Below are positions 2,071-42,241 of a stretch of DNA of 42,539 bases, one piece after another; position 1 is the first letter of the stretch, and each line of letters starts with the position of its first letter. The stretch comes from Hydrurus foetidus (Eukaryota). The notes beneath the pieces are model-generated. The model made no database searches and was not told the DNA's origin. It worked only from the letters and a program-made list of their open reading frames with translations. The stretch is from positions 1 to 42,539 of the forward strand of contig UYFQ01000065.1 of NCBI GenBank assembly GCA_900617105.1, given 5' to 3'. The translations under genes and the position numbers were made by a program.

Positions 2071-7533
<5,463 letters not shown>

Positions 7534-17225: not shown

Positions 17226-17591
17226 TGTCGTGATCCACGCTCTAGTTCCCGTGAATGGGCAACTAAATCCTTCCTGGGTCCGCTCTCCTTCTGCAACTTC
17301 AACCTAGCTTCTGATCACTTTCCCGGGCTCAAGGCGAAAGTGGGTTTGGTTTGGAGTTTAAAGTAATTAACAATGCAACGTAGCTTACATCGTTCGTGGA
17401 GACAGTCGAGAAATTCGATCTGTCCCGCACAGTCAAACATGGTGTACTTTCATTTTTAATGTTCCTGGATGTGGAAAAAGAACTTGGACCGGTGGAGTAG
17501 CGACCTCCACGTGGCACACGACGTACGAAACGTCATTAAATGTACATACGTAATAACTTATACGGTTACTTATCACACAGTTATTCCGACA
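17226..17591 (-). repeat. 3' LTR of Copia-1
   Basis: TGTCG...CGACA termini; no difference from 23230-23595 seen by eye. Confidence 0.97.
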
Positions 17592-17600
17592 CACCCCTAT
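17592..17600 (-). other. Polypurine tract of Copia-1
   Basis: ATAGGGGTG on the minus strand abutting the 3' LTR. Confidence 0.7.
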
Positions 17601-18244: not shown

Positions 18245-21200
18245 TCAAGTCTTCTTCACAGATGGATATTGGAAGTGTGGGTTGGTCTTTTGCCGCGCGG
18301 GAGTAGATGGTGAGTCCACGTGATCCTCAGTCTTGCAACCTTCTGCATAGGTAATGGAGAGGGGGGGGATGTTGAGTAGCTGCTTCCTCAGCTTCCTAAA
18401 TAGCTCCCCCTGCAATGGCTTGGTTAGGATATCTGCGATCATGTCAGTAGTGGGTAAGTAGACAATGTCGATATCGCCTGTGGTAATCCTGTCGTGCAGG
18501 AAAAAGTACCGTATGTCGACGTGACGTGTACGTTCACTATTAGAACGACCGTTACGAATTAACTGTATCGTGGACTGGTTGTCCTGGTACACTAGTGCGG
18601 GAGGCTGTGGGTGTCCTTGGCTCTCCAGGAAATTCCTGGTCCATAGCACTTGGTTGGCGGCGTCGCTGAGTGCGACTAGCTCAGCCTCTGTGCTGGACTT
18701 GGTCATCAGGCGCTGTGTCCCGCTCTTGGCATAAATTGCCCCTTCCCCAATGTGACCACGCTACCTGTGTGGCTTTTCATGTCGGGGTGTATGGCAAAGG
18801 ATGCGTCGATATATGCAGTAACATGGATAGGTTCATGTACTTCAAATGTAATACCCATGTGCTGGGTACCCCGTATGTACTGGATCGTACGGGACAGCTT
18901 GTCGTAGTCATCCCTTTGGGGCTTCAGCACCCGCTTGGTGAGGAATGCTACAGCCGTGAGAATGTCCGGCCTAGTCCTCTTACTCAGGTACAGTAGCTTA
19001 GCTGTAATGGAGTGGAAACGCTCACGCAAGTCATCAGGTAATAATGGGTTAGATTCATCAGGTATAGCAAACAGATTGGGTCGTGCAGGAGTGGTAGCCG
19101 TGCCCGGCATGTCCGTGCACCCCTCAATGAGATCTTTTACAAACCCTTCCATCGTCATCTTGACTACTCCTTCGTTATTGAAGTCGAAGGTCATACCTAT
19201 GTAATTTAATACTTTGCCGCGGTGTTTGGTTAGACCGGGGTATATAGTTTCAATCTGCTTTATAACCTCATCCACGCAGGATTCGGTTGAAGCAGTAATA
19301 ATCATGTCGTCAACATGAATTACTAGTGAGGTTTGTGTGTTATCAGTTTCGGTTCTATTGAATACGCAGATGTCGTATTCGTTTGCAGTATAATTGAGTT
19401 TATTCAAATCGCTGGATAGTTTGTCATACCATAACTTAGCAGATTCTACACATCCATATAAAGCTTTCTTTAGTTTCACAATACATGTTCCATTCTTATT
19501 TATGTATTTGTTATATGTTGCGTCTATTTGTATTAGTGCAGCAGTCAGTTGTTTATTTAATCGCATGTATACAACATGGTCACCGGTCAGCGGCATATCG
19601 CTATTCAGAAATGCACCGGGGAAATCAACAGTGGCAATAGCACGGTTCTGTTTAGCAGCAATCGCAGTTAGTATAAATACGCTGGATGTGCTAGCAGTAG
19701 GGGATGCACCATTGTTATAAACATCTCTATCTTGTAGGTGCCCACCGGCTACTAGTCTAGATTTCAGTTTTTCAAACATACCATCAGCCGTGTACTTTTC
19801 TTTTAGAAACATGCTACTCGGTATGATGGTGCGTTTTTGTTTAGGGGTAAGTGATTCATAAGTTACACCTTCCCATACATCCTTGTCGCACATTTGTTTT
19901 AGTTCGGATGTAATGGAATCAACAGCTAGCACCCCTAACTTATTAATTCCTTCACTAACAGTCATCTTATATAAGGATGTGTTTTTATAAAACATGCTAC
20001 CAACATATTTCCTATTCCATTTACCTAGTTGGTGGTTTCTACCACTTCTACGCAACAAAGGTGAAACACTGTCTGGTAAATCATATTCTGTTTCTATTAC
20101 TGAAGGTGGTGAGAATACTTCGGGTTGCGCAGTTACATCGTCAAAGTCATTTTCATCATCACTTATTCCAAATATATCATCGATTAGTGCTTGATCGTAT
20201 CTGGGTGAACGCTCATGTGTTTCATATTGATTCGAATCATCATGTGTGTGGTTATCGTAATATAGTTCGTCATTAGTATGAGTGGTGTCATTCATATATA
20301 GTGTGTCATCTACATACTCATCTAATGTCGGTGGGTTGTTTTCATCGTACATATATTGTTGTGGCTCAGGGTATGTGTCATTGTCAACATGTTGGTTGTC
20401 TTCAGTGATTTCATCGGTTTCTTCTGCGTCAGCAGATTCGTCAATGGTATCATACTCAATGTCACCAATGTATTCAGGGTCATCGTCAACATCATCGTCA
20501 TCATCGAATACGGTGTGGCTATTCTCGAATACAGGTTGTTTAACATTGGCAGTTTTTCTATTCGCTGCCAGACTGTTTAAGTGTAACACAACTTCGTTAG
20601 GCATGGGTAGTACAGTTGCTTTTGTACGTTTAACAATTTGTTCATTTGCTAACAGCATGTAGTACCATGAACCTTCTAGATTGCCGGAGCTCATAAGTGC
20701 TATGGCCCCGGCTGTTCTTGGTTTGGTAGAGTTGTCAATAACATCATTGTGCACTTGGACATAATCACCAAAACCGTGCTTAATCTCTTTATCTACATCA
20801 ATCTTTCTACCGCTGAGTTTCTCTCGTGGGCTGATGTGATCTATAGAGTTACGTGTGGGAGCTAATACAATTCTACTGACTGCATACTTAACTAACCACA
20901 CTTCAAGTTTCTCGCTTAATTCAAATGGCAGCGTGTTAATAACGGATCTGACTCTCTCTTTAATGTGTCTAATCTTACGCTCCACTACGGCTACGGCTTC
21001 CCCGGCTCCGGTAACATCTAAAATGATACCTCTGAGACTGACTTTGTTGTGGAACCATTCGGTGTTTATGGCGCCTTCACCGTCTACTCTTATCATCTTA
21101 ATCTTAAAGTGATACTTAGTCATGCCTGCTATGGCTGTCTTTAGACTGTTCCATAGTGTTTTGTGATCTCTCTTGGCTAGCTTGCTAACAAACAGGAATT

Positions 21201-22101
21201 CAATAGGCTGTACAACTGATACTAGGTAAGGTATTTGGTTGACAAACATTATATCAATGTACATGATCTGTTCTGTCTTATACTCTGTACCTATGAGAGG
21301 CAACTTTTCTTCTAGCTTAGCTTGGTGGCTAGTAGTCTTGCCCTTTAGGGATCCAATGTCTGGTCCCCATATGTCTATCGCTCGGTGTACGTCTCGCGCA
21401 GTCACTTTACTGTTAGTCAAATTCCCTTGGGATATCAACTTGATAGTTTGTGCTGCGCTAGCGTAACCTAGCCTACGCTGATAGTCTCTAGCTAGCGAAG
21501 CGTCTCTGACCTCTCTAACTGTATACTTCTTCTTTTTCTCTTCTACGGTTGTAACTAATAGTGGCATACACTCAGTCACCATGGTATCAAGGTTACATTG
21601 ATATATATTCATTGACTCATCTCGTGAGAATCTGTAGAAGTAGTTACCAGTAACATCTTGCACTATATAACAGTCATGGTCATGTAAGTACATAACGTCA
21701 GTGCAGTCACGTACAGCATTACCAAAAGACAATATGTTACCAGCACAGTCAGGGCTATAATATACGTTGCCGAATGCTGATTCTCCACGCTCCTTGACTA
21801 TTAGCGGTTTTCCTTTCGGATTCACCCCGCTAACAATCATGGGAGTGGTCGCAGATTCGACGTTGTATAACAGGGATGAGTCGTTGAATACCGACTCACC
21901 GGCACAAGTATCAAGTAATATGTGTCTTGATTTAATTGCATTATATATATTACAAATATTGGTGCTAAATACAATACGATCGCACGATTCAACCCCGCTA
22001 GTGGAGTCAGCCAAACGTGGACCGGTGAGGGTGGATGCGTGTACAGGTGTGTGTGTGGGTGTATGTGCAGGTGAGGAATAATGTAATGTATTTAGTTTAC
22101 C
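18245..22101 (-). CDS. pol: Copia-1 Pol (protease, integrase, RT, RNase H)
   Basis: ILLDTCAGES (PR); YIDIMF / RVDGEG / VERKIR (IN DDE); KSRLVAGG, LKKALYG, IHVDDM (RT); YIDASFA, SSTEAE, YQDNQS, IADILTKPL (RH). One 1-nt shift in a G-run near 18740. Frame is open back to the gag end in -1. Confidence 0.95.
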
Positions 22102-23204
22102 GATTTAAAGTTTCCACTGGCTGCTGATGCAGCCGATTGGCTTTCCTTTGCCGTGCACTCGTATGCGTAATGGCCCGGTTGTTTACATGAGTTACAAATT
22201 CCGGGTCGGGTGCCGTACTCTGTGCGTGCACCCTTCCCTTTGCTCACACCCCCACTCCCCTTTCCCTTCTCATTGCCTGCTGATTTCTCTCCGCCGGCTG
22301 TTTTCGCTGCAAAGACGTTAGTTTGGTTAGGTAGGCCCGTACCGGCAGGTTTCTTAGGGGTTACTTTGGCCATTTCGAGATACGCTTCATCGAGCGTATC
22401 AGGCCAGTCTTTTATGCCGTGCTCGTAGTACTCTACGAATTGTCTGTATCCCGAGTTAAGCCCCTTCATGAACTTCATTGCTGTAATCAAGTCTTCGTGT
22501 GCGGTCATAGCTGGTGTGTAGACGGGCATGAGTTCTAAGGACTGCCGCGTGTCGTCGTATCCTATTTTGAGCGCCTTGAACCGTTGATAGTAGTATTTCA
22601 ACATATCGTTCGGTTCCATTTTTACCGTTTCATAGGCCATTCTTACTCTTAATAGGTTCTCGTCCGCGCCTAATTTCGGATCTGACAGGTGCGTTAGGAT
22701 GATGGCTCTCATTAGGAGTAGCGGGTTCTCCGCTGTGATCGCTGCCAGGCCGGCTTCAGTTTCGCGGATAGTCGCCTTAGACGTCTCGCTAATCTGGCCG
22801 AGCATCAGGCCGAACACTTGCTTCGAATCCGTGGCCAGTTCCAGTACTCGTTTGTCGTAAAGCTCTAGTGCTTTTTTCCACCGCGTGACATCCATGAAGT
22901 TTGCTTCGACTGCGATGTCTACCGGTGCTACGAAGACAGGGTAATTTCCCGGTATTCCTTCGTTCCCAAAAATTTCACAGACGTCGGACTTGTAGTTGGT
23001 CCGTGTGTACTCACGAAATTTCCTCATCCATGCGCTTACGCTGCCATGGTTCATTTCCTTCCCCAAATCCAGGAACGCGCCGATGGCAGCTACCGTTCCT
23101 GTTCTGGGTGGAGGCTTTGGCCCTCCACGGCCGGCGTTGCCCCTGCCTCCGTTGGCGGGGCCGCCCTTGCCAGAAGGTTTTCTCTCTGCAGCTTTGCCTT
23201 TCAT
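22092..23204 (-). CDS. gag: Copia-1 Gag
   Basis: ATG at 23204, RGG-rich N-terminus, CCHC knuckle CNSCKQPGHYAYEC. Confidence 0.92.
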   Translation of the reverse strand: MKGKAAERKPSGKGGPANGGRGNAGRGGPKPPPRTGTVAAIGAFLDLGKEMNHGSVSAWMRKFREYTRTNYKSDVCEIFGNEGIPGNYPVFVAPVDIAVEANFMDVTRWKKALELYDKRVLELATDSKQVFGLMLGQISETSKATIRETEAGLAAITAENPLLLMRAIILTHLSDPKLGADENLLRVRMAYETVKMEPNDMLKYYYQRFKALKIGYDDTRQSLELMPVYTPAMTAHEDLITAMKFMKGLNSGYRQFVEYYEHGIKDWPDTLDEAYLEMAKVTPKKPAGTGLPNQTNVFAAKTAGGEKSAGNEKGKGSGGVSKGKGARTEYGTRPGICNSCKQPGHYAYECTAKESQSAASAASGNFKSVN

Positions 23205-23229
23205 CGAATGCAAGTGCAATTGTTAATTA

Positions 23230-23595
23230 TGTCGTGATCCACGCTCTAGTTCCCGTGAATGGGCAACTAAATCCTTCCTGGGTCCGCTCTCCTTCTGCAA
23301 CTTCAACCTAGCTTCTGATCACTTTCCCGGGCTCAAGGCGAAAGTGGGTTTGGTTTGGAGTTTAAAGTAATTAACAATGCAACGTAGCTTACATCGTTCG
23401 TGGAGACAGTCGAGAAATTCGATCTGTCCCGCACAGTCAAACATGGTGTACTTTCATTTTTAATGTTCCTGGATGTGGAAAAAGAACTTGGACCGGTGGA
23501 GTAGCGACCTCCACGTGGCACACGACGTACGAAACGTCATTAAATGTACATACGTAATAACTTATACGGTTACTTATCACACAGTTATTCCGACA
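23230..23595 (-). repeat. 5' LTR of Copia-1
   Basis: Direct repeat of 17226-17591. Confidence 0.97.
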
Positions 23596-24350: not shown

Positions 24351-24413
24351 GTAAATTCAACTCCATTTTAATTTAATTTAATATACTACGGAAGCCTAAT
24401 CTAAGATTGTGTC

Positions 24414-24778
24414 TGTCGGAATAACTAATGAGCTAAGTAACCGTATAAGTTATTACGTATGTACATTTGATGACGTTTCGTACGTCGTGTGCCGTGTGGT
24501 GGTCGCTACTCCACCGGTCCAGGTTCCTTTAACCCAGGAACATCAAAAAGACGAAAGTGCACCATGTTTGACTGTGCGGGACAGCGCGATCTTTTCGCCT
24601 GTCTCCATGAACGATGTAAGCGATGTTGCATCGTTAATTACCTTAATACTCACACCAGCAGAGCTTTCGCCTTGAGCCCGGGAAAGTTGCTAGCGCACGT
24701 GTTGAACCTGCAGAAGGAGCGCGTACCCAGGAAGGATATAGTTTTCCATTCAGTGGAAACTGATCCTTAGTTACGACA
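24414..24778 (+). repeat. 5' LTR of Copia-2 (365 bp)
   Basis: TGTCGGAATAACT...TTACGACA, collinear with the Copia-1 LTR. Confidence 0.92.
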
Positions 24779-24815
24779 TAATTAACGAGTTGCTTTCGTT
24801 GCAACCAGTTGCAAC

Positions 24816-25928
24816 ATGAAAGGCAGAGGCCGAGGCCGAGAACACAATACCGCAGGCGGTCGAGCAAACCCTGCCAACGGTGGCAGAGGGAATGCTGGCC
24901 GCGGTGCGAAGCCTCCACCAAGGACAGGAACGGTAGCCGCGATCGGCGCATTCCTGGATCTCGGAAGAGAGATGAACCATGGCAGCGTCAGCGCATGGAT
25001 GAGGAAGTTCCGCGAGTATACTCGCGCGAACTATAAGTCCGATATCTCTGAGATATTCGGCAACGAGGGCATACCGGGTGATTACCCGCAATATGTCGCT
25101 CCAGCGGACATAGCTGCCGATGCAAATTTCATGGTATCAACAAAATGGAAGCGAGCATTGGAGCTATATGATAGAAATATACTTACTTTGAGAGAAGACC
25201 GAAAGCAAGTCTTCGGACTCATGCTAGGTCAGATTAGCGAAGCGTCGAAAGCGACGATTCGAGAAGCTGAAACGGGCCTTGCAGCCATGACTGCAGAGGA
25301 CCCGCTTCTATTGTTGAGAGCTATAATCCTGACCCACCTCTCTGACCCGAGGTTGGGCGCCGATCAAAATCTGTTGAGAGTCCGAATGGCTTACGAGACA
25401 GTCAAGATGGAGCAGAATGACGTGCTGAAGTACTACTATCAACGCTTTAAAGCGTTGAAATCCGGATACGAGGACACGATGCGGGCACTAGGGGTCATGC
25501 CCGAGTTCAACGAGGCCATGACCGCACATAATGAACTTCTAACAGGGATGAAGTTCATGAACGGCCTGAACTCCGGTTACCGTCACTACGTAGAATACTA
25601 CGAGCACGGACTGAAGGAATGGCCAGACACACTCGAGGATGCATACATCGAGATGGCTAAGGTCACGCCGAGGAAATCAGCAGCAGCAACACCACCCAAC
25701 CAGACCAACGTTTTCGCCACGAAAACGGCTGGCGGTGAGAAACCTACTGATGCTGGTAAAGGGAAGGCTAGTGGGAACGGGGACAGAGGGAAGGGTGGGC
25801 GTACGTCGTACGGCACCCGTCCCGGAAATTGCAATAAGTGCGGTGAAGCCGGACACTACTCCTATGAGTGTACGACCAAGGATAGCCAAGCGGGTGCATC
25901 AGCACCCAGTGGAAAGTCGGTAAACTAA
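24816..25928 (+). CDS. gag: Copia-2 Gag
   Basis: 370 aa, homologous to Copia-1 Gag; CNKCGEAGHYSYEC knuckle. Confidence 0.92.
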   Translation: MKGRGRGREHNTAGGRANPANGGRGNAGRGAKPPPRTGTVAAIGAFLDLGREMNHGSVSAWMRKFREYTRANYKSDISEIFGNEGIPGDYPQYVAPADIAADANFMVSTKWKRALELYDRNILTLREDRKQVFGLMLGQISEASKATIREAETGLAAMTAEDPLLLLRAIILTHLSDPRLGADQNLLRVRMAYETVKMEQNDVLKYYYQRFKALKSGYEDTMRALGVMPEFNEAMTAHNELLTGMKFMNGLNSGYRHYVEYYEHGLKEWPDTLEDAYIEMAKVTPRKSAAATPPNQTNVFATKTAGGEKPTDAGKGKASGNGDRGKGGRTSYGTRPGNCNKCGEAGHYSYECTTKDSQAGASAPSGKSVN

Positions 25929-26850
25929 GTAAGATACATTATTCCTCACCTGTACACTCACCCACACCTACATCCGTACACACACCTGCACTTACATCCA
26001 CACACACACCTATACATACACTCACCGATCCTCCATGTTTGGCTGATTCCACTAGCGGAATTGAAACATGTGATCATATTGTTTTTAGTACCAATACATG
26101 CAATATATATAACATGATTAGAAGTAGACACATTCTGCTTGACACATGTGCTGGTGAGTCGGTTTTCAACGACTCATCCCTGCTGTATAATGTCGAACAC
26201 GCACCCACACCTATGATTGTTAGCGGGGTGAATCCGAAAGGAAAACCGCTGATAATCAAGAAACGTGGGGTGTCGGCGTTCGGCAACGTGTACTATAGCC
26301 CTGACTGTGCTGGTAACATATTGTCTTTCGGTAATGCTGTACGTGACTGTACTGATGTTAAGTACTTACATGACTATGATTGTTACATAGTGCAAGACGT
26401 CAGCGGAAAATATTTTTATAGATTCTCACGAGATGAGGCTATGAATATATACCAATGTAACCTTGACACTATGGTAACAGAATGCATGCCAATGTTAGTT
26501 ACGACAGTAGAGCAGAATAAAAAGAAGTATACAGTAAGAGAAGTCAGAGACGCGTCGTTAGCTAGAGACTATCAGCGTAGACTAGGATACGCTAGCGCAG
26601 CACAGACTATTAAGTTGATATCCCAAGGGAATTTGACTAATAGCAAAGTGACTGCGCGAGACGTACATAGAGCCATTGATATATGGGGACCGGACGTGGG
26701 ATCCCTTAAGGGGAAGACCACTAGTCACCAGGCCAAGTTAGAAGAGAAGTTACCATTGATAGGTATAGAGTACAAGACAGAACAAATCATGTACGTAGAT
26801 ATAATGTTCGTCAACCAGGTACCATATCTAGTATCAGTTGTTCAGCCCAT
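25919..26850 (+). pseudogene. pol: Copia-2 Pol fragment
   Basis: ILLDTCAGES; near-identical protein to Copia-1 Pol up to the gypsy insertion point. Confidence 0.9.
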
Positions 26851-27058
26851 TGTGGCTCCCTCAGGGTCTGCTACCCCATTCAGCCGATTAGATGCTGTTT
26901 CCACCTTAGTACCTTCGTGTTCACAGCCACGACTATCAGTCACTAGCTAGTTTGTGCTGCTTTGCAGAAGTTACTAGCGTACCTTCTGCCTTCATCCCTA
27001 ACTAACTAGCTCCTTTTAGCCTTTAGATTTCCCTTCTCTTTTGCCTTCCAAGGTCACA
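26851..27058 (+). repeat. 5' LTR of Gypsy-A (208 bp)
   Basis: TGTGG...TCACA; differs from the 3' LTR by one substitution and one indel seen. Confidence 0.96.
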
Positions 27059-27153
27059 GTAGATCTACTTCCTTTAGTTTCTCTTCTTTAGACCCTATCC
27101 TCTCTCCTACTCTAAGCTACCATCCTCTACACTACCCTGCTGCCCTAACTCAC

Positions 27154-27501
27154 CCGATTATCTGCGTGGAGAATCTCGAATTTTATTCGAAATTCTCGTT
27201 TACGAGCAATTCTTACTATCGCGAGCAAGTCTCCGAAGTCTGGTCGCCGTAAACATAGTCACTCGGTATCTCCCGATACTTGACTATTTCGTGGTTGCTT
27301 GAGTTTCATCTCAACAATCCCATACCGATTACCTGCGTGGAGAATCTCGAATTTCATTCGACATTCTCGTTTGCGAGCAATTCTTACTATCGCGAGCAAG
27401 TCTCCGAAGTCTGGTTGCCGTAAACTTAGTCACTCGGGTTGAGATTTCTCTCCCGATACTTGACTGTCTTGTGGTTGCTTGAGTGCCATCTCAGCAAACC
27501 C
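27154..27501 (+). repeat. Two-copy ~171-bp tandem duplication in the Gypsy-A 5' leader
   Basis: Units begin CCGATTA at 27154 and 27325; imperfect copies. Confidence 0.9.
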
Positions 27502-27803
27502 AAATTTTTGTGCAGAGTTAACTCCGTTAACTTCTGCCCATCTCTCGCCGCAAGCTTTGCTTGGCTGACGTCCGTGGATAGCTTTGTCTTCCACGCCGTT
27601 CTCGTTATTGGTCGAGCAAGTCTCCCAATCCCGACTTATTTTGTACGGATTGATTCACTCATCCGTCCAGAACCTGCTTGACTTATTGTGCTTCGCCTAA
27701 TCGCCTGTTTGATTTTCATCCAAACGGCACGAGGCGAAGCCCTTGCAAAATTTTTTTGGCGACCCCCGCTATTTAAAATTGTCAAGACATAAGTCATCTA
27801 ACG

Positions 27804-30800
27804 ATGCCGTTATCCGATGACTCTTCGGAGATATCGCCGTCGCTCGCCGAATTAACCACTCAATTAATTCCGGCAGCGACGACTGTTTCAAAAACTCAGT
27901 CGACACCAACACCGCCGACAGCAGTAGCTGCGTCTGATGGAACTGATCGACCGGTATTCCCAGTAACAATACTGGGACCTACCAACAGTTCCAATCAGGC
28001 GCCGCCTAATCGTAATATCGACGACGACGACGACGTTCACACAACGCGACAACATGACAATGTCACGTTGCGTTCGTCAGACGCTAACCGTCAACAAACA
28101 CGCCATAATGGCAACCCTGACCGGGATGATGACGACGGCGATACTAACCCTCGCCACCGTATAGATTCACCCCCGCAACGATATCTCCGTCGTCGGGGCC
28201 TCGACAGTTACGACAACTCAACTCGTCGGAATAACCCCGTCGAAGGAGATGCAACGGGCGACTATCCGCCCACTCCGAATCAACAGAGTGGCAGCGAAGA
28301 CGGTGATGACGGTAATCGTTACGATAACCGTCAACGCCACGATCCTAACCAACGTCAATACAATGACGATAATCGCAACAACAACGATTATCGACGTTCT
28401 AATGATGACAATCAAGGTCACAACGACAGTCGTCGTAACTACGATGACTCCAACCCTCCCAGGGACAACCGTAACACGGGCCCTTCATACGGTACGGAGC
28501 ACCGTAACGACAATCGTTACGATAACGAGGGACGTCAATATAACGATGATCGCCGCAATGACAACAACGTCAGAGCGATAATCGTCGTTATAACGACAAT
28601 TACCGTCAGAATGACGACAACCACGACTACGACAACGATGGTCGTCGCGGCTACGACACCCCATTCAACGACGACAACAGACGTCAATACGACGATCGAC
28701 GCAGCAGCGACAATCGTCGCAACGACGACAACTCACGTCAGAATGACGGGCGTCGCGATCACGACTATCGCCAACAAGACGACAACCCTAACAGGGATAA
28801 TCGCAGAGACACTTTCCAACGTCACAACGATAACCCCCAAAGGGATAATCGTAACTACGAGGATTCTCGTCGTAATGACAACCCAAACAGGGGAAATTAT
28901 TCGACTAACAATCGCAGTTTCGATAATTCTCGCGACGACAACAACGACAGTTTCCGTCAGGGCGACAACAACCCCAATAGGAGAAGTCGTCGAGAACCTC
29001 CACAGGGTTACGATGACAGTCCCCCAAGGGATTATCCTCAAGGAGACAATCGTCGCCAACAGGATACCTCCAACCGGGGCAACCGTAATACTGACGGTCG
29101 TCAGTACAACGACAACCAGTACGAGGACGAACGTGCGACCCCACGGGCAACCGTACGCGTCACCGACAACTCTCGACTACTCGAGAGTCGCGATACGCGC
29201 ATCCCCGAAAATGTGGAGACAATAACCCGCACAGCGGACGTTCCTCGCAAACGCGCGTCACCTCCACAAGAGGGTCCCATATCACGCAAGCGACAAGCTT
29301 CCCCACCAGGGTCACCGGAACGGCCTACATACGTACGTACGTTCACCGGTGACACGGATTACAACCCACAACCCCAACGAGTCATCCAGGAGATCCCACG
29401 GGAAATTCGGGTTCCTAACCCACTCCCCTTGGATCCTCCTGAAATCGTGATACTGCCTGCAACAGCTCGCGTAATCGATTACGAGCAGCAAACAGCAGCA
29501 TTCCGAGCTGCAGGGGGCGGTCCCGACCCCAATGCAGCGCACCCGGTACGACCACCGATACCACGGTACATACACGATCGTACGTCACCGATCAACGTAC
29601 CCGCGGTACAGTTTGCCACACCCAATGCGGCACCTACAGCGCTTGTAGTGGGTGGCCGTGCTGTGGACGATGGTTCCCGACCCATCTCCGCTATTGCCTT
29701 GCAAACGGTGCTTTACGTTCTCAACGTAAATGCGTCAGGCATTATTGGACAAGAGGCAGCACGGGAGTTTTTCGAACACTCCCAGAGGTGGACCAACAAC
29801 TACGATGTTGGTCAAGTCATCTCGACTAAAGCAGTCAGGTGTATCGATGATCAGATCCATACGGATCAAGATTATCCATATGCGGAAGAGACACGTAAAG
29901 TGTGGCTCCAAACGCTGACGGTCCCTCAAGTAGCACAATTAGTCCTGCGCTACTTTCGCGCGGACACACAGCTAGGACAGTCACTAGCTGAGCATTTCTC
30001 GGAAGTCCATCTCGCCTTTTGTTACAACAAAAGGGAGATTGAGATGCGCTGCATGACTCAGTTTCGTGAGGTGGTGGAGAACCATGTACAAGTACATGGC
30101 CCACTCAGCACCTCCGACCATGCTGCACTCACTCTCATCTTCGAGAAAAAGATGCCTCTTAACGGTGCCATCACCGCCAAATACAAAGAGCATAAACGCG
30201 TCAACCCGCATGACGTGGACGATTGGGAATTCGCGATGCGTCGCTTTTTCTCCCAAGTCAATGCGGTACGCCAACTTCAGCTACACGTAGCGGCTTTTGG
30301 GGACCCCAACGACATTTATTGTCACCCCGCTACCCAAAATCCATACGGGTTGTCTCTCACGACGAACCCCAAAACCCTGTTGGTTGGTGCGGCACTCCCA
30401 GCTTTACCACCGCTGGCACTGCCAACAACACCACTCCGACAGTGTAACTCGTGTGGACACATGGACCATCTGCTGAAAAATTGCCCACACATGTGGATGG
30501 TGGATTCAAACACCAACCACAATGTTCCGTGGGACCACTCCAACATGGGTCGCACGTGGGCACAATACGGTCATGCGACCTACCCTATCAATGATCGCAT
30601 CCCTGGTCTGGGCCGCTTTAAAATCCACATACCCCGTCGTGAAACAAATTTCACTGATGAGGTACTGAATAAAACTCAGCCCCCAGGGGGTGGTCAAAAG
30701 AAAAAATACCAAGGGAACCCCAATCATGGGGGAACTATAATCGAGGTCCCACCAACAAACCGCGATACGGTTCTGGTGGACAAAACACCACGTTGGCCAA

Positions 30801-33800
30801 CAACACCTCCATCAACGCAACCCACAGTGGTCTACCGCCCGCAGCCGCATATGATGGTACGTTACCTCATGTCACGGTGGTGGAGTCATTGGTAGTGGCG
30901 ATACATGCTACTAACACATGTACACCTACCGATACACCACCACCTTTATGTATACTCAACTCTGATATACTTGTAACGAATACATTGGAGGTCTCAACCC
31001 CTCCAATACAGTATCGGATAACACTAACAATGTTCTTCCCACATGTCTTCACGTGTTACAGCCACCCCATACCTCCCTGCCTCTAATCTCGGAGGTGCTG
31101 GCGGCATGCCATAACCAGACCGACATGTCGGAAATACCGCTCATAGGTACGTTACCGTCTGACTCACTTGTAGCAGCGGTACACTCAACACATCCTAATG
31201 AACTTCTTTCATTATTGGTGTTCAAGGATGAACGAAGAACCTTGCAGGGACACGCCCCCACCACAGTCGCGTCAGCACCCCAGTCCACGGGACTTAGTCT
31301 TACAGCGCACGCGCTCCTAGACACGGGTAGCATGGCCGGCGATTTTGTTTCCAAATCACTGCTTGTCTCACTTGATGCACTTGCTCATTGTTATGTGTCT
31401 TCAACAGCACTTAACGTTTGTAGCGGTCTTGATGGAACTTGTTATAGGTGTAATACCTTAGTCGATTTAGGCCTTACTTTTTTCGATGATAGTAATATTA
31501 AGCACACTATCTATATCACTTTTAGTGTTAATCCTTTTGCACAATTGGATCTGATCATCGGACGCAAGTCCCTGAATCAACACAACTTGTTTGTGCTGAC
31601 GCCGAAACGTATGGGCTTTGACCCTACGTTAATCGAAACGTCACCCAGCCCAGATGACATCGGTCTACTTCCCTTAAGGGCAGAGTCCGACATCGGTACA
31701 GATTCACATACCGACGTCTGTTGTCATCATAGTGACGCTGTCGGATCGCGTAGTCCTTGTACACAGTGTCGCCTAATTACCGACACTGCTGACAATGGAG
31801 ACGAAGGTCACTCGAGCACCCACCGTATTCCAACAGTGGGAGAAGAGTGGGGTCCATCTGCGCTATGGACGGGCAGTGGTCTTAACCGCCCCCCTTCTGA
31901 GACCGGGACGAGAGTGAACACAGTAACACTTAACGCCGCGAGCGTGTTGCCGTGCGGAATCAATCTCAATGGAGATGAGATTGATGATGACAAAACAGAT
32001 GCATTCGGTCCGTTTCTTTCTGCATTGATGAAAGACCCTACCCCAACAGGTAGGGCGAACGACGTCATCTCGACAATCACCTTTGGTGGGTCGGAAGCTC
32101 TGCAAACAGCATGCAGAGCATTATGTACCGAATTTATTGACATCTTTCAAGATGAGGTGGCCCGTGAACCGGCCCGTATACCTCCTTTTGATATTGATCA
32201 TAAGGCGGCACAATGGGAAGTACCTGGTAACAGGACCCCGCTCCGCCCACAATCCTCACAGAAGGAAGAGGCGATTCACAATAACCTTCAGGATCTGATA
32301 CGGATCGGGGTGGTTGAAAAGTCTAATGCGGTATACTACAGTCACCCTGTAGTAGTACAGAAGTCACCCGGACAATACCGTGTATGTATTGACTTCCGGC
32401 CACTTAATAACTGTACGGAGTCGGCCAGTTGGCCACTCCCAAACATTCCAGCAATGTTTGAACGCATTGGCGCTCGTCAACCTGACATCTTTGGAGTTAT
32501 GGACTTAACGTCCGGCTACCATCAAGCACCCCTTACGGCATCAGCCAAAATCCTGACTGCATTCATATGCTTCTCTGGAATTTATCAATTCACTCGATTG
32601 CCTTTCGGCCTCAAACGTGCCCCATCATACTTCCAGGAGATGATGGCCACGGTTGTCCTTGCGGGCCTTTTATATGTAACATGTGAGATGTATCTCGATG
32701 ATTGCATTGTATTTGGTAATGGGCCTGACGAGTTTCTGCAGAGACTTCGTGATGTCTTCATCCGTTTTCGAGAAAAGAATTTATTCTTGAAAGCTAAGAA
32801 ATGTAAGTTCGGAGTTACACGCCTCGAATACGTCGGACGTGTGATCTCCAAAGAGGGGTTATCTATGTCGGCTGAGAAAATAAAATCTGTTTTAGATTTT
32901 CCTCGCCCTAAAACCGTTACTGCCCTTAGGGGATTTCTCGGTTTGGCGAACTATTTTAGAGGTTTCGTACCAAACCACTCCAACATAGTAGCACCGTTAC
33001 ATAAAATGACGGTGTCTACAACTCATAAACATTCCAGAGTAACTTGGAATGCTGAAACCATTAAAGCGTTTCAAGACATTAGGCAGGCAATCTCTCAATG
33101 CCCCCTGATGCACTTCATTGATAATGTATCACCAATACATTTATACACCGACGCATCTGATTATGGTGTAGGTGGTGTATTGTTCCAAAAGTTGGAGATG
33201 AAATGAAACCCATTTCATTTGTGAGTAAGTCACTCACCTTCTCACAGTTGAACTGGTCAACAATCCAGAAAGAAGCTTATGCTATCTACTTGTGTTGTAC
33301 AAAACTTGATCCACTATTACGTGATCGCAAGTTTACGATTCACACAGATCATAAAAATCTGACGTACATGAAATCCTCCCCTAACTCGATGGTAGGGAGA
33401 TGGTCCATGGCTCTACAAGAGCTCGATTACACAATCGCATACGTGCGAGGGTCTGAGAACACGGTAGCGGACGCTATGTCTCGCCTCTGTGCTAATCTCT
33501 CGGACCTTGTCATCAAGGTTCAACCAGCCACCACTGGCACAGAACCGGATAACTTGCCGGGCCCGTTTTGCGGCGCCCTCAAGGTCATACCAGAAATGAC
33601 TGATACGCAGCGTGACGCACTCAACATGTGCCACAACAAGTTTGTTGGACACGGGGCGTTAAACGCACCGTAGAAAAGCTTTTAAGCTTACCCATTGAGT
33701 GGGAACACATGGTTCAGCACACCCACTTGTTTATACAACAATGTGCGTGCTGCCAGAAGATGAACGCTACACGCGTACCGATACGTGTACACAAGTACGT

Positions 33801-33946
33801 TACTTCTGCGTACAAACCTTTCCATGTATTGAACATCGATTTCATCGGACCCTTCCCCGATGCCTCACACGTTCTTGTCATCATCTGTGCTTTTACACGA
33901 TGGACAGAACTATTTTGGTGTGCGATAATACGGAATCGGCTACCGA
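27804..33946 (+). CDS. Gypsy-A Gag-Pol, 5' part (Gag, PR, RT, RH, IN N-terminus), with several 1-nt shifts
   Basis: CNSCGHMDHLLKNC; LLDTGS; CIDFRPLN, DLTSGYHQ, LPFGL, YLDD; YTDASDYGVG; HHCC; shifts near 28568, 30730, 31000, 33188, 33655. Confidence 0.9.
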
Positions 33947-33948
33947 TT

Positions 33949-34143
33949 GGTGGCTCGAATGGGAAAAGGAAGAGGTGGAAGGCTAGAGAGGTAGTTAGTT
34001 ACAGCAGGAAGCTAGAAGCTAGGGTTAACTTCTACGTGGAGGCTGTAAGTGGCTACGACGATACAACAGACTGTAGTGTACGGTGGGTAGTGTACCGTAG
34101 TACTATCCGGTAGGATCGGGACCTTGGACCCGGAACTACCACA
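33949..34143 (-). repeat. 3' LTR of Gypsy-B
   Basis: Direct repeat of 40485-40679; one internal substitution; left terminal 2 nt differ. Confidence 0.93.
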
Positions 34144-34475
34144 CTACCCCCACTTATCCTTCTTTCTCAAAGAAAATCTAAACTAAACTAAACTATGGCG
34201 AAACCCCCGTTTCTATGTTTGAAAATAACAATATGTAACATAAATGATAACGAAAAAACGAAAATCAAAAATATGTACATTAACTTCAAATGCGAAAATA
34301 TATATAAAAGAAATTTTGAAGGGGTTTCGGAAATTGTGAGAAAGATAAGGATAAGGGAGCATGTACAAAACAGAATCGTTCTGTTGTACGAGGGTCAAAC
34401 GTAATTATGTCAGATTTTTACTGACTAAAAACCATAAAAATCCCTCGTGAGGGCAAAAATTAGGCCAAAAAATCT

Positions 34476-37400
34476 TCAAAAGATATTACGTTTGAGCTCA
34501 AACCTCGGTGGTTGATCCTCAATATTCCTGGGAACAAAACGCGACATGTTATTGTTCCTCAGGTATACATGGAGTGCATCACAGAGCCGGAGATTCTTCC
34601 AAGGCTCCCATGTATTATGTGAGTCATCATAGTTGAGCCATTTTACATGGAACGACATCGTAGTCGGTTTCTTCTTATCACCTGAGTGATTAAGAACTTT
34701 CTCAACGAAATACTCCATGTAATCGCGACGTGCTGTATCAGCAGGTAAGCCCATCGAAGGGTCATAATTGAATATCTTAAGATTCGTTACATGTACACTA
34801 TTGTGTTTATGTGTAATTAAGTTCGCGAGAACATACTCGGATCCATCAAAGGATACAACACGGAAAGGGCCTTTCCATTTAGTGTGTAGTCGAGTTGGAG
34901 GGTGTTCTTGTTTTACCAAGACATACGACCCTATAGGAAACACTGTCAAACCGGATGTCGACTTTTTGTGTTTTTCATCACATTTTTGAAGTGAGTCGAT
35001 TGCTGCATCGAGGACTTTGTCCTGTATCTCGATTAAATCAGCAATATATGTTGAATTTGATGATGATACCACTGGTAACAAATGAGGTGTTAAAATTCCT
35101 CGATTCAAATCAAGTTTATCCGCAAATAGGATAGATGCTGGACTTGCACCCGTACGTTTATTAACTGAACTATTTATAATTCGTTGTACGAACGGAATGC
35201 ATTTTGCATAATGGACAAGGGACGGTGTATCGAACACCAGTCCTTTCAAATGTCTATTTATCTCTTTATTGACTCGTTCAACAATCGCATTCTCTTGAGA
35301 GGAGTAAGCTAGAGTGAGATTATGGGGCGTACCCGTAAGATCTAAGAACTCTTTTATGAGATCATTAGCGAAATGGGATCCACGATCCGATCTTATCATG
35401 TTTGGCGAACCGAATCGACCAAAATGTGTTAATAAATTCTCCGCTGCAGATTCGGCAGTAGCGTCCTTACACCAGAACATTTCTGTCCATCTGGAGAAGG
35501 TGTCAATTATGACGAGAATATACCCCTTATCGGGAAAAGGACCCACAAAGTCAATATTCAACGTATCGAAAATTGCGTGAGTAGAAGTTGAAAAATGGGC
35601 TGCATTGATTTTCGCATCAACCGCACTTAGTTTTTGACAACAAGGACAGTTTCGTATGTATGAACGTACGTGCTGTTTCATATTTTTCCACACTTGGTTT
35701 AGACTGTAAAGTCGAGTGAGGGTTCGGTCGACACCGTTGTGACCAACAATTGCATTGTGGCACATTTGAATATGAAGTATTTGTTCATCTGTGGCCGGTT
35801 CGATAACCGTTAAAGCCGCCACACTTGTGGAAGAAGATGAAGATGATGATGAACAACCATCTCTGACAATTGTCAATGGTAGAGCAATCTCAGTAAGATT
35901 TGGACATAAACGTGACAGCGCATCGGCTAGTTCGTTATCAGATCCTTTAACAAAATGAACGGTGAAATCTAGTTCTTGCATTGCAATGAACCACCGTGCT
36001 ACCATCGAAGTAGGGTTTTGTTTCATATATGTCAAATTCATATGATCAGTATGAATAGTGAATTTCCGATCTCGGATAAGGTAATCCAATTGTTGGCAAC
36101 AATAAAAGATAGCGTAAGCCTCCTTTTGTATTGTTGACCAATTAATCTGAGTTGCAGATAGAGATTTGCTAATAAAAGCGATTGGTTTCCATTCGTCATT
36201 AATGACTTGGAATAATACACCACCGATTCCATAATCAGATGCATCAGTATATAATCTGATGGGTGAAGTTTCATCGATGAAATACATCAATGGACAACGA
36301 GATACAGCGATCTTTGTCTCATTGAATGCGTTTGTCCCCTCGAGGGTCCAAAAATTGGAGAGCGTTTAACCGCTTTTGGATCCACCATCATGTGAAGTGG
36401 TTTTACCATTTCTGAGTGAAAAGGAACGAATTGACGGAAATAATTGGCTAAGCCAAGGAATCCCCGTAATGCCGTAACTTCTTTTGGAAGTGGAAAGTTG
36501 AGAACTGTCTCAATCTTTTCTTTCGACATGGATAAACCATCTTTGTCGATGACTCGTCCGACGTATTCGATACGTTTAAGACCGAATCGGCATTTCTTTG
36601 CTTTGAGTTTAAGATTTTTAAGTCTAAATCTCTCAAAGACTTTCCTCAAGTTCAAAAGAAACTCTGCTTCGCCCCGGCCATATACAATGCAATCGTCGAG
36701 ATACATCTCGCAACAGCTGTATATAAGACCGTGAAGGACCGTTGTCACCATCTGCTCTTGAAAGTAAGAGGGGGCACGACAAGGGCCAAAAGGCAATCTT
36801 GTGAATTGAAACACCCCCATGAAACATATAAATGCCGTATAGATTCGGTGGGGTGTATATAAGGGAGCTTGATGGTAACCCGCGGTTAAATCCATCACCC
36901 CATAAATATCCGGTTTTCGATTACCGATCCTCTCAAAGAGGTGTTTGATATTTGGTAGTGGAAAGGAGGCCGGCTCAATGCATTCATTGAGTGCGCGATA
37001 ATCGATGCAGGTTCGATATGTATCGGCTGTCTTATTTACCATTACAGGATGACTGTAGTATGCAGCGTTCGACCTCTCGATCACACCATCTTCCAACATC
37101 TCTTCGATAGAAGTGCGGAGATAATGTTCCTTTTTAGAGGATTGGGGTCGCACGGGTGCGTGGTTCGATGGAACCTCCCATTTCTGCCGTGGCAGGTTTA
37201 TCTCAAACGGCTTGAGGTCAGCAGCTTGCGGAGCTAGCTTATCACTGAATATATCAGCGAATTCAGAACAGAGAGTACGGAGATCCTTTTGAAGGCTTTC
37301 ATCTCCTTCAAAATGAATCTGAGACAAGAAATCATCCGGCCCGTTGGGCGGTACATTCCGGCACGTCTTGTCACGCAAGAAAGGTGCGAAGGTATCAGTT

Positions 37401-39908
37401 TTATCATCGTCAATCTCGTCAACGGAGAGTGCGACACCGCTTGGCCATATGGCTTCCGCGTCATAGTCTGATGTAACAGTGTCCCCAGAGGTATGTGTGA
37501 GGATGGGAATCGAGTCACCATCTAGGTGCGGGGTATCACCCGTACGTTTCGCGAGTACAGTCGAGACACTGTCCAGTCGCTGACAACCCACATCACCACA
37601 TGGACTTTGGGTAGACTCCCTTGGTACCATCCTGGGTAACGTTACACGTGAACGTTGTATGACAATCTGACCCTACGACTTCCTTGGTTAGAGGTGCGTG
37701 CAGAATGGCCTTCTTAGGTGTTGGCATTGGGCAGAGACCGTATGGTTCTCTCCGATCCGAAAGTCTTGCTTTGGTGATACCCTTTAACATATCGTATGTA
37801 GGTGTAATCGACTCCACTTCCGGTTCTTCGGGTATAAAACCCTCAGATATCATACGTCTGGTGTACTTGTGCCAGTGAAGCGGGTCAAGCTTGGCTATCG
37901 CTTCCCTTTCTTCAAACTCGAGCCAACGAGCATCACGCTTCCTTTTGTTCTCGGCACTAAGCTCGGGAGAAATACCAAAAGCGAAAGGTGTTAATGACAT
38001 AAAATCATATTTATTTACAGTTTTTCGACTTAGTAAAAGTTCAATGTCTGTGTTCCTATTAACCCGCATCGTTAAAGGGATGGTATGACATTCGCCGTCA
38101 TAAGAATGAAATTTAAGAATTAAATCAATCATTTCGTTATTTATATAGCACTGGCCATCGAGACCAGAGCAAACAGTAATGGGTTTAGAAGCTTTATAAC
38201 AGTCATGTTTAGCATTCAACTTATCAATCATCGTGAAAGAAATAAAATCCTCGGAGTAATTGGCGGTATCGAGTACGGCCTTGCCCACAACGCGTCGTAC
38301 GTTAGATTGGCGCTCCTTATCCTTATCCTGTATCAAAACCGTTACGTTGAGATGGTCAGAAGGTAGAATTGATGGATCATGCAAAAATTCATCGGGAATA
38401 AATGCTGGAATGACCGATGCAGTAATGCATGATACTGAATGTTCCATGTCAGTGACATCAGATGAATCGACATCAGGATCATATGTACCTTGTTGGTTTG
38501 CAGAGCCGTTGCTCGCGTTGTTATCCCCTTGGGGTGGGTTGTATCGACCCCCTCGAGGGTTTTTACCTTGATACCCTCTGCCACCACCTTGGTTGCCCGT
38601 AGGACCGGGGTTCCCTTGGTTGCGGTTTTGGTTACTTTGGTTTCCGTAACCTTGGTTGTTGGTTTCCGGAACCTTGGTTCTGGTTACCTTGGTTTTGATT
38701 CCCACGGTTTCCCGAACCTTGGTTTTGGTTTCCCTGGTTTGGGTTGAACCCTTTACCTCCACCCTGGTTACCCTTGTGCTTCTTGTTATTGCACATCAAG
38801 TAAGGGGGTGCCCCTGCAGGGTGGAATCTCTCCCTGGTTTCGAACCCAGGTAGGATGAGTCTTTCCTGCCACATAACTTCACCTTGTGCCAGCCATGCCT
38901 TACCTACAAACGAATCAGACCAGTTACAGCCGTGATCGTTGTTGGTATCGGAATAGTACATGACTGTACAATCTGATAGAATATGTGCAGGGTTTCCGCA
39001 TGAGCGACAAACCCGGGCAGCGGACACTAACGGTTCGTCAAGTGTCGAACGTACCGCTAGGTTGCTACTCCCACTTGGGATATCTACATCACGGATAGCC
39101 AGTGTGCTCGCCCGCTTTTTAGTAGAGCGGGGAGGAGGGACTGCTGTACTCGGAAACGAGTAGACAATGTCAGGGTTGCCATAACTCCTGCTCATGTGAA
39201 TTGCGTCGCGAGCCGCCGTGACGACCGCGATAATGCGCAACATGGCGACTTCCCACGTCTTGGGGGACTCATTGTCACGTGCTTTGTGAGCGACGTAATC
39301 ACCCAAGATTCGGCTCCCTCGAGGGAGTCGTTTCTCAAGAATCGCTATCAACTCGGCATGCTGAGATGCGGTGATATGACGGACACGTTCGTGATCCGTG
39401 GCGATCTCTTTGTACGCCATGTACGTTACTAACTCTTCCTCATCGGAGGAAAGAGAATAGTGGAAGGGGACCTTAGCAAACAGTTCTGCTAAGGTATGAT
39501 CCCCTTGTTTGTTCTTGCAAAAGTATTGCATTACCAACTTGCCAACACTCTCTATCGGAAGGAGGTTTTGCCAATTAAGGCGTTGCTCGTTGGTAATAAC
39601 TGCCAGTGTCGACTGATCAGTTAAGATTTTAACATGAAGCAAATCGATTGCTTGACGTTGCATGCATTGTTTAATATGCAAGTGAGGTAAGCGTTGTGCT
39701 TGCTCATAGAATTCTTCAGCATCCTGCGGAGTAATATAATCTCCCCGTAGGATGAATATCTCACGCTGGATCTGAAGCGTCTGGGGAAACCCATGCTTGA
39801 CGATTGTGAGCTTTGTGAGATGTTAAGGATGTTTCCTTCCTCATCAACCTCATGCTCGTTGTCTGGCTCATTTGGCTCAGGCTCAGGATGTAGACCGTCG
39901 TCTTCCAT
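34476..39908 (-). CDS. Gypsy-B Gag-Pol with chromodomain, several 1-nt shifts
   Basis: CRSCGNPAHILSDC; VLDTAN; YLDD; YTDASDYGIG; IRSDRGSHF, ENAIVERVN, WKGPF; chromodomain VEKVLNH...FHVKWLNYDDSHNTWEP; shifts near 39787, 38665, 37620, 36350. Confidence 0.92.
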
Positions 39909-40484
39909 CTCCTATCGTAGGATGAGCAGTCGATATAAATCGAGTTGTATCGAAGCAAGGACGAGCTTTCCTCGTCAAAAAATTTTGCGAGAGCTTCGCC
40001 TCGTTCGCGTATCGAGTACTTTACGCAAGTAACAGCGAATGAGATGATTTCAACCCACTCTTGTCGAGAAAAATTCTATGGCGTCGAAGCCGAATTTTGG
40101 GTGATCGAAATTTTGGTGTCCTGTTAAGGATGAAGGAAGAACTTCCTGTCGACCAAAAGACGTCCTTAGACTAATCTGATGTCTCTAGCAGTGGAACCGG
40201 TGTCCAAATTGCCAGTGGAGAACTCCTTAATTTCGAGTTGGGAAGCCTCTCGCGACTTCGACCAAAACGAACTTTTGAAAACACCTTTCGGAGGGTTTCA
40301 AGCAGGAAGCGGCTATGCCAAACTCCTGTAAACTTAAACTAAGTTCTCGGAGCTTCGGGCTCAGCGAGAAAACGACTCCTCGGAAGTCGTGGAGTGAATA
40401 TACTCCTTTGGAAGTCTATCTAAAGTTTGGGACGAGTAGATGGGTAGAAAAGAAGAGAAGGAGGATGAGCGGCAATAGCGCTAT

Positions 40485-40679
40485 TATGGCTCGAATGGGA
40501 AAAGGAAGAGGTGGAAGGCTAGAGAGGTAGTTAGTTACAGCGGGAAGCTAGAAGCTAGGGTTAACTTCTACGTGGAGGCTGTAAGTGGCTACGACGATAC
40601 AACAGACTGTAGTGTACGGTGGGTAGTGTACCGTAGTACTATCCGGTAGGATCGGGACCTTGGACCCGGAACTACCACA
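40485..40679 (-). repeat. 5' LTR of Gypsy-B
   Basis: Direct repeat of 33949-34143. Confidence 0.93.
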
Positions 40680-41669
40680 TTTCACACGATGGACAGAACT
40701 CTTTTGGTGCGCTGATAATACGGCCAAATCGGCTACCGACTGCCTTCTCCAACACTTTGGAAGATACGGTGCACCCCAAATGATCAGATCTGATCGGGGT
40801 TCACATTTTGCTAACGAATTGATCAAACAATTCCTAGTGTCAACGGGTACACCCCACAACCTGACACTAGCATACTCTAAACAAGAGAATGCAATAGTTG
40901 AACGAGTTAATAAAGAAATTAACCGGTACTTACGTTCGTTCCTGTATGATACAAACGACGTGTACCAGTACAAAAACTGCTTACCGTTTATACAGCGCAT
41001 TTTGAATTCTTCAATTCACAGCAGTACTAATGCCTCCCCAGCAAGTTTATTGTTTGGTAACCAAATCAATCTTGATTCGGGCATACTTTCACCATTCCCA
41101 CCATTACCGGAAGAGGAAACTCCCGCATCAAAAGTGGTCTGTGAGATGTATCACATCCAGGATACCCTGATTGCCCAAGCACAAACTGCTTTGCGCACAA
41201 TGGACGCGGCTCATATTGCCACAAGTCCACAGGATATAACGGTTTTTCCCGTCGGTTCATATGTGTTGGCTAGATATACCACACAACCGCCCACACGGTT
41301 ACACACGTTGTGGCGGGGACCGTTTCAAGTGATATCGATTCACAACTCTGATTATACGTTGTTAGATATAACTACGAAGAAACATAAACATCTTCATATT
41401 AGTAATCTTAAACAATTTGTTTTCAATCCGAAACATACGGATCCTGCTGATGTAGCACGCCGCGATTATATGGAATTATTTATCGATTCCATTCTTCAGC
41501 ACCAAGGCAATTCCAGGCGCAAACCCAAATGCGGTTTTTAGTCAAATGGACTGACTTTGATGACTCGCACAATACGTGGGAGTCGTGGAAGAATCTTCGT
41601 CTTACAGACGCTCTTCACACATATCTACGCCTTCACGGCATGTCGAAAATAATTCCGACAGAAAAGTAA
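40680..41669 (+). CDS. Gypsy-A integrase core, GPF motif and chromodomain (3' part)
   Basis: IRSDRGSHF, QENAIVERVN, WRGPF; after a shift near 41525: MRFLVKWTDFDDSHNTWESWKNL...TAA 41669. Confidence 0.92.
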
Positions 41670-42033
41670 GTTCCCCAGGAACGACCTACACATTATCTTT
41701 TGAAGATTCCTCCTCATTTTTACAACGTTACGTTGCTTTTCAGGAGGTTTAGTCAGTAAAATCTGACATAAATGTGTAGGGAACACTTAGTTACAACACA
41801 TCTAGGCACTCTTTGTTTCTCACTTTCCATCTCTCATGTACAAATATCTGTATTTATCACATTTATTTAACTGATTTTTTTTTATTCTTTTTCGTTACCT
41901 TTTTCAGCATTTTTCTTTCTCACACTTGAGTCATATTTGTTTTGTTACACACTGTAGCTAGAGACTCACCAAAGAGAGAGAGGGAGAGGGAGAGGGAGAG
42001 AGAAATGAGAAAACGAGAGATAAGTAGGGGTAG

Positions 42034-42240
42034 TGTGGCTCCCTCAGGGTCTGCTACCCCATTCAGCCGATTAGATGCTGTTTCCACCTTAGTACCTTCG
42101 TGTTCACAGCCACGACTATCAGTCACTAGCTAGTTTGTGCTGCTTTGCAGAAGTTACTAGCGTACCTTCTGCCTCCACCCTAACTAACTAGCTCCTTTTA
42201 GCCTTTAGATTTCCCTTCTCTTTTGCCTTCCAAGGTCACA
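42034..42240 (+). repeat. 3' LTR of Gypsy-A (207 bp)
   Basis: Direct repeat of 26851-27058, preceded by PPT and a GA-rich tract. Confidence 0.96.
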
Positions 42241-42241
42241 C

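Follow-up and report, generated by a model that had tools for sequence, protein, structure and literature searches.

A covarying 12-nt palindrome at the 5' LTR boundary of a chromodomain gypsy clade and its possible role in priming

In two chromodomain-type Ty3/gypsy families from Hydrurus foetidus and in their relatives, the position of a tRNA primer-binding site (PBS) is occupied by a perfect 12-nt palindrome that begins with the last base of the 5' LTR. This feature is real, clade-wide and strongly constrained. From the sequence patterns described below, we give an even chance to the reading that the palindrome is a primer site and a primer in one, such that the packaged RNAs would pair through it and one of them would be cut to prime the other. 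The window referred to throughout is the whole stretch of DNA that was analysed, namely 42,539 nt of contig UYFQ01000065.1.

The two gypsy elements and their LTR junctions

The window holds Gypsy-A on the forward strand and Gypsy-B on the reverse strand (Table 1). Both families have the LTRs, the polypurine tract and the RT-RNase H-integrase order of gypsy chromoviruses, with Gypsy-B complete and Gypsy-A in two halves. In Gypsy-B, a chromodomain lies at the integrase C-terminus (Pfam Chromo, E 2.5e-12), and one is present too in three related loci (L013, L025 and L041). The 3' LTR of Gypsy-B is found in the window without the last base of the family end CCA(C/T)A. The original prediction treated Gypsy-A as one element, and in this respect it has to be corrected. 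No target-site duplication was found at Gypsy-A or Gypsy-B (flanks 26846-26850, 42241-42245, 33891-33950 and 40680-40739), and the two halves of Gypsy-A are not a single insertion, which leaves the LTR-palindrome-gag junctions of A and B unaffected. Integrase sequence of approximately 56-60 nt lies on each side of Gypsy-B (33891-33950 and 40680-40739, 88% identity), and the copia element into which the left end of Gypsy-A cuts is not resumed at the right flank of Gypsy-A. What looks like one nest consists of two A-family copies with Gypsy-B as the junction between them, produced either by recombination or by assembly.

Table 1. Positions of the gypsy features in the window.
Feature	Position	Strand	Remarks
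Gypsy-A 5' LTR	26851..27058	+	208 nt, TGTG...CACA; 99% to 42034-42240
Gypsy-A palindromic candidate primer site	27058..27069	+	last LTR A + GTAGATCTAC + T
Gypsy-A left half: gag-pol, several frameshifted ORF pieces	27777..33673	+	Pfam RVT_1, RT_RNaseH
Gypsy-B 3' LTR	33950..34143	-	33951-34143 matches 40487-40679 at 99%
Gypsy-B polypurine tract	34144..34159	-	flush with the LTR's TGT
Gypsy-B 3'-UTR stem-loop, conserved	34405..34428	-	GTCAG-N7-CTGAC
Gypsy-B gag-pol, four ORF pieces	34476..39822	-	RT, RNase H, integrase, chromodomain
Gypsy-B palindromic candidate primer site	40474..40485	-	last LTR A + ATAGCGCTAT + T
Gypsy-B 5' LTR	40485..40679	-	195 nt, TGTG...CATA
A-family right half, integrase end	40680..41669	+	Pfam rve
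A-family right half 3'-UTR stem-loop, conserved	41749..41771	+	GTCAG-N6-CTGAC
A-family polypurine tract	42017..42033	+	flush with the LTR's TGT
A-family 3' LTR	42034..42240	+	99% to 26851-27058

Every gypsy ORF (27777-39822) is frameshifted despite LTR pairs that are 99% identical, and these frameshifts may be long-read assembly errors rather than decay. The Gypsy-A leader contains a 171-nt duplicated unit (27154-27502), and short repeats occur within Gypsy-A gag (28365-28765). Elsewhere in the window, a 12-nt unit is repeated in a long tandem array that holds open frames (5387-6300), and there are two related copia elements (77%), located at 17226-23595 on the reverse strand and at 24411-26850 on the forward strand. 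The first of these is a complete copy whose LTRs are identical and whose target duplication reads CGTGG. A flavin monooxygenase fragment in the window has its best named relatives in chrysophytes and other ochrophytes, at 59% and lower. Gypsy-B occurs in freshwater, biofilm and glacier samples. These matches make a chrysophyte, in all likelihood a freshwater one, the probable host, although a single gene fragment is slender evidence.

Rereading of the sequence at the two 5' junctions yielded AGTAGATCTACT for Gypsy-A and AATAGCGCTATT for Gypsy-B. As had been claimed for them, both are perfect palindromes of the same length and in the same register, including the terminal LTR A, and they differ at 4 of 12 positions with the pairing kept by every change. 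In Gypsy-A, the register is set by the second LTR copy (26851-27058 versus 42034-42240, 99%), by which the first base of the palindrome is the last base of the LTR. In the window, the agreement between the two LTR copies of Gypsy-B ends at 40487, and the claimed register lies two bases further on. Among the matches listed in four sequence runs, which were examined as contigs, four Logan contigs from three of the runs (X2 one, X4 one, X7 two and X1 none) have unrelated flanks outward from 40485; other breakpoints among these matches fall at 40484 in two contigs and at 40481 and 40490 in one each. In one contig from X1, the LTR terminates in CCACA and not in CCATA. Together, these breakpoints and ends indicate that the LTR of the Gypsy-B family ends in CCA(C/T)A and that the claimed register holds. 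The absence of listed variants over 40462-40493 in B-family contigs was considered as further evidence and was rejected, since approximately 21 sites vary in 341 nt, a density at which 12 nt free of variants are unremarkable.

Palindromes of at least 12 nt are common in the window, with 21 present versus approximately 10 expected from Markov simulations, and thus only their position is informative. Calculated from local composition, the chance of a palindrome at one fixed register is 8e-5 for Gypsy-A and 4e-5 for Gypsy-B.

Conservation and covariation of the palindrome among relatives

A protein search for relatives gave 403, and an alignment of 34 gave 78 metagenome loci and 33 loci from prokaryote bins. 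The 5' LTR junction is visible in 7 of the 13 close metagenome loci (L013, L014, L016, L019, L020, L022 and L023), the remaining six of which stop before the junction or carry a 3' LTR only, and in two in-clade loci among the 33 from prokaryote bins (L100 and L107). The expectation that related chromoviruses would share the palindrome was borne out at all 11 visible core-clade 5' junctions (the 2 in the window and 9 others), each of which has a perfect 12-nt palindrome starting from the last A of the LTR. At each of the nine further core junctions, the sequence is (C/T)A(C/T)A, then a 10-mer, then T. Outside the core clade, L025, whose RT is only 28-35% identical, likewise has a perfect 12-nt palindrome in the same register, and L046, a member of the wider clade with broken ORFs, is a near miss with two mismatches at the palindrome site. 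The LTR end is set by a second LTR copy in Gypsy-A, L022 and L016/L019 (via L015) and to within two bases in L023 (via L040), and it is placed by analogy at six junctions (L013, L014, L020, L025, L100 and L107).

An RT tree of 151 sequences places the core elements together on a long branch with a support of 0.91 (core RTs are 50-89% identical) and gives L025 no settled position. In an integrase tree of 30 sequences, consisting of Gypsy-B and the 29 of 35 loci that passed a length filter, the core elements, L041/L046 and L025 form one clade with a bootstrap value of 100, apart from the fungal-type loci L001, L012 and L011. Core RTs are 23-31% identical to that of L001. Scans of viral contigs with single proteins found no relative, and scans with alignments gave 12 distant loci that were used as controls only (L007 is without a junction, and L010 and L011 lie outside the control set).

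Most of the loci L091-L123 are short contigs of this retrotransposon clade from prokaryote bins, and in L091 bacterial-looking genes are joined to the element. These are presumably eukaryotic contigs in prokaryote bins, that is, bin contamination. At position 1367 of L122, an A+10+T palindrome, AAAGTACTTT, follows CATA ahead of a gag-like ORF; no RT is linked to it on the contig, and it was left out of the counts.

Covariation was evaluated in a set of 11 families, from which L016 was omitted as a duplicate of L019. The 11 families have nine different 10-mers, and Watson-Crick pairs are found in 66 of 66 cells with no G-U pairs. Five of the six pairs have changed on both sides and none has changed on one side only, counts that include shared ancestry. 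As predicted, covariation exceeded that of shuffled controls (0.685 versus 0.146, with 0 of 500 shuffles as high), and registers slid along the junction reached at most 0.114. The outer pair, formed by the LTR A and the T at +11, is invariant across the 11 families. The two central pairs are the most variable and are nevertheless always paired, having changed on both sides in 6 and 5 of the 11. Families with RTs that are 84-89% identical already differ by compensated changes, with two pairs differing between L014 and L019 (RT 88%) and one pair differing between L022 and L023 (RT 84%).

Two other elements recur in the clade. A 3'-UTR stem-loop of the form GTCAG-N6-7-CTGAC lies approximately 60-260 nt before the polypurine tract in the A family, in Gypsy-B and in 10 clade loci (L013, L018, L020, L022, L023, L024, L040, L103, L106 and L115), and L021 has a compensated version, GTTGG...CCAAC; the stem-loop was not found in L014, L016, L019, L025 or L046. 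Packaging and strand transfer are candidate functions for it. Likewise, 10 of 13 elements have a TGTAACTAAC-like motif that precedes the 3' end of the LTR by 48-98 nt. It lies at approximately 26998 (forward strand) and 40539 (reverse strand) in the window, is present in L013, L014, L016, L019, L020, L022, L023 and L107, and is a candidate poly(A) or promoter signal.

Priming at the palindromic site

In LTR elements, minus-strand DNA has to begin at the LTR boundary, with the 3'-OH for it paired just inside, and particles carry two RNAs. With respect to tRNA, none of the 13 junctions begins with TGG, in agreement with what had been noted for the two in the window, and the out-group locus L121 does begin with TGG. 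No tRNA or Rfam matches were found in the window. Host tRNA halves or 3' ends might still prime, with the palindromes being incidental, and copia lineages are known in which half-tRNAs prime at sites that lack TGG (PMC6317226). However, half-tRNA use is found in copia only in the survey as reported there, and nine different palindromic 10-mers in 11 families would presumably need as many self-complementary fragments. We consider this explanation very improbable.

The earlier statement that neither LTR offers a convincing complement also held up, since +1..+12 pairs with its own LTR no better than shuffles do in 12 of 13 junctions (p 0.155-0.94). The sole exception is Gypsy-A, in which a weak duplex close to the start of the LTR, with five Watson-Crick pairs in a row, has a p of 0.04. 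By comparison, the same duplex-energy test found an LTR complement better than shuffles in 7 of 9 fungal controls, which are called Tf1-type, as are L001-L012 generally, by their PBS:LTR complement and not by named references. Self-priming of the Tf1 type, by the 5' end of the transcript, would suit chromodomain gypsy elements that lack TGG, and the weak Gypsy-A duplex speaks for it. Given the result at the other 12 junctions and the separation of the two groups in the integrase tree, it is largely refuted, and we assign it almost no weight. A downstream complementary arm of the GalEa type, with which the site would form a hairpin, was better than shuffles in 0 of 10 elements tested (p 0.19-0.92). 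A polypyrimidine stretch after the LTR, as in Skipper elements, is absent, +1 to +11 being the palindrome; only Gypsy-A and Gypsy-B have flanks rich in pyrimidines (85%), against 36-62% in the other perfect-palindrome elements.

A second copy of itself is the sole good partner found for the palindrome. Calculated self-dimers range from -5.6 to -16.2 kcal/mol at 37 C and from -11.2 to -23.8 kcal/mol at 10 C. For the A/U-only palindromes, 6-7 of 12, the dimer is worth no more than -5.6 or -6.8 kcal/mol at 37 C and approximately -11 to -13 kcal/mol at 10 C. Primer duplexes of the Tf1-type controls range from -7.7 to -14.7 kcal/mol. None of 10 tested 12-mers has a stable hairpin, and hairpins forced into a 4-bp stem and a 4-nt loop come to 0.0 to +3.3 kcal/mol. 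With self-dimerisation favourable and fold-back unfavourable, these calculations support the original prediction that a loopless palindrome pairs best between two copies.

In the dimer-mediated mode of priming that we favour, the palindrome would join the two genomic RNAs of a particle head-to-tail by pairing, with RNA 2 lying on RNA 1 over -1..+11 and the invariant U at +11 placed opposite the invariant last A of the LTR. RNA 2 would then be cut at the 3' edge of the palindrome, at +10 or +11, likely by the RNase H of the element as in Tf1, in which this activity cuts an RNA duplex to yield an RNA primer (PMC7175516). The resulting 3'-OH would start minus-strand DNA on the U5 of RNA 1. The lock of the register to the LTR end would follow from such a role, because any primer 3' end must lie there, whereas a pure dimer signal has no such need. 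A cut of one genome at +11 would part its 5' end from its body, so that the partner would have to supply the second strand transfer, an arrangement that appears workable on paper.

A corollary of this mode is that plus-strand synthesis would copy the attached primer, by which the site would be rewritten as its own reverse complement in each round. Since the copied primer is the same as the site only if the site is a palindrome, rewriting would select for strict Watson-Crick symmetry. A single change would produce a mirror-image heteroduplex, the repair of which would give either the parent or a fully compensated palindrome. Rewriting would thus account for the double changes seen between sister families and for the absence of G-U pairs and mismatches among them. 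Of the dimer-mediated priming put forward in the original prediction, several parts now stand, namely a conserved palindrome that covaries at its central pairs too, a preference for the self-dimer over fold-back, and the lack of an LTR complement or downstream arm; the remainder is what we infer from them.

The argument from copying fits a fold-back primer equally well. In this alternative, priming occurs in cis: the RNA would be cut after the palindrome, and the 12-mer would snap back with a 4-bp stem and a 4-nt loop to prime its own U5. The position and register would be identical, and here too the site would be restored, and its loop made symmetrical, whenever the attached primer was copied. 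Nevertheless, the central pairs covary as if they were paired, yet they would be the loop in a hairpin, which counts against fold-back, as do the missing stable hairpins and the energies of the forced ones. We regard priming in cis as quite unlikely.

Trans pairing could also prime with a primer other than a cut genome, namely a separate short element RNA that would be either a prematurely ended transcript or a small RNA cut by the silencing machinery of the host. Such a primer would spare the packaged genome from sacrifice, and a sense fragment could pair only if the site were palindromic. An antisense small RNA, on the other hand, would make the palindrome needless, and we judge a separate primer RNA of either kind to be improbable.

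Finally, the palindrome might be a dimerisation or packaging signal only, in which case priming at the same boundary would depend on another source, such as a protein hydroxyl or a 2'-OH. According to PMC3592414, dimer initiation in retroviruses takes place at palindromes, and Ty1 has palindromes that are candidates for the same function. In addition, a weak 3-5 bp stem between U5 and the leader flanks the palindrome in 8 of 11 families, as a kissing loop would need (Fisher p 0.035 and 0.008, with 8-nt flanks only); with 12- or 20-nt flanks the stem is not significant, and we take it as a hint. However, the known dimer palindromes described in PMC5445492 sit in a loop elsewhere and are additional to a PBS. 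A signal for dimerisation only would leave unexplained why the length is always 12 nt, why the register is tied to the final base of the LTR and why 66 cells contain no wobble pair, and no other primer source was found among those considered above. This explanation is unlikely in our estimation.

Comparison with known priming systems

A palindrome in place of a PBS has already been published for the fungal Ty1/copia elements GalEa (Donnart et al. 2017, PMC5445492). These elements are without a PBS; 9 nt complete a palindrome with the LTR's last A, and an arm complementary to this sequence comes after it. The authors of that paper propose a priming role, mention dimer-initiation sites and report no model that fits. 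The GalEa Conserved Hairpin Site (CHSeq1/CHSeq2) resembles the site described here in that its palindrome includes the last A of the 5' LTR and lies at the PBS position with no LTR complement. It differs in being a 10-nt copia site, whereas the 12-nt site described here belongs to gypsy elements (RVT_1 and gypsy domain order). In GalEa, 85% of families are accounted for by two sequences, versus nine sequences in 11 families here, and the GalEa complementary arm, 12-41 nt farther on and with a fixed A/A mismatch, is absent here (PMC5445492). The claim of newness therefore has to be narrowed: the site type was already in print for GalEa copia, with no mechanism established in that paper, and no gypsy precedent came to light. 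Specifically, no published report of a palindromic primer site in gypsy elements was found in a search of open-access papers. For Tcn2-5, "novel mechanisms of priming" were described by Goodwin and Poulter in 2001, as cited in PMC7175516, and that paper and entries in Repbase or GyDB may describe similar sites.

Both copia elements of the window read GACA and then TAATTAAC after the 5' LTR, without TGG and with a 6-nt palindrome at +1. This palindrome recalls the GalEa site CTAATTAGT, but in a different register.

The Tf1/sushi/Tcn1 elements are, like those described here, chromodomain gypsy elements, and their priming is tRNA-independent (PMC7175516; bioRxiv 10.1101/2022.12.06.519325; PMC6317226). 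Their primer of approximately 11 nt is made from their own RNA by RNase H at a site flush with the LTR, which can be likened to the mode proposed here (PMC7175516). Tf1, however, primes with the first 11 nt of the same RNA, a sequence that does not form a palindrome (PMC7175516), while the elements described here have no LTR complement and belong to a separate clade. The Skipper chromoviruses of dictyostelids likewise have neither TGG nor an LTR complement, and a novel priming mode has been suspected for them (PMC5006619); their site is a degenerate polypyrimidine according to the authors' text, versus a palindrome here. Retroviral dimer initiation sites and the Ty1 PAL motifs share with the present site a self-complementary RNA that pairs two genomes, but they occur alongside a tRNA PBS and at a distance from the LTR boundary, as described in PMC3592414. 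Among plant elements, 6% are without a detectable PBS (PMC6317226).

For GalEa and Skipper, which have neither a tRNA site nor a Tf1-type complement, the published literature leaves open how reverse transcription starts, and the clade described here offers a clean covarying signature and sharp predictions. The balance seems to us level on whether a deep protist chromovirus lineage primes by a third route, using neither tRNA nor the 5' end of its own transcript, in which the genomes of a dimer would prime each other through a self-rewriting palindrome that acts as dimer seed, primer and primer site, with GalEa copia having reached the same solution independently. If true, dimerisation of genomes would be tied directly to priming, and the element would be freed from host tRNA. 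For annotation, PBS finders that match tRNAs miss these elements. Compared with known systems, the type of site has a copia precedent and tRNA-free priming is known as a strategy, and the gypsy palindrome is longer, more varied and without a second arm.
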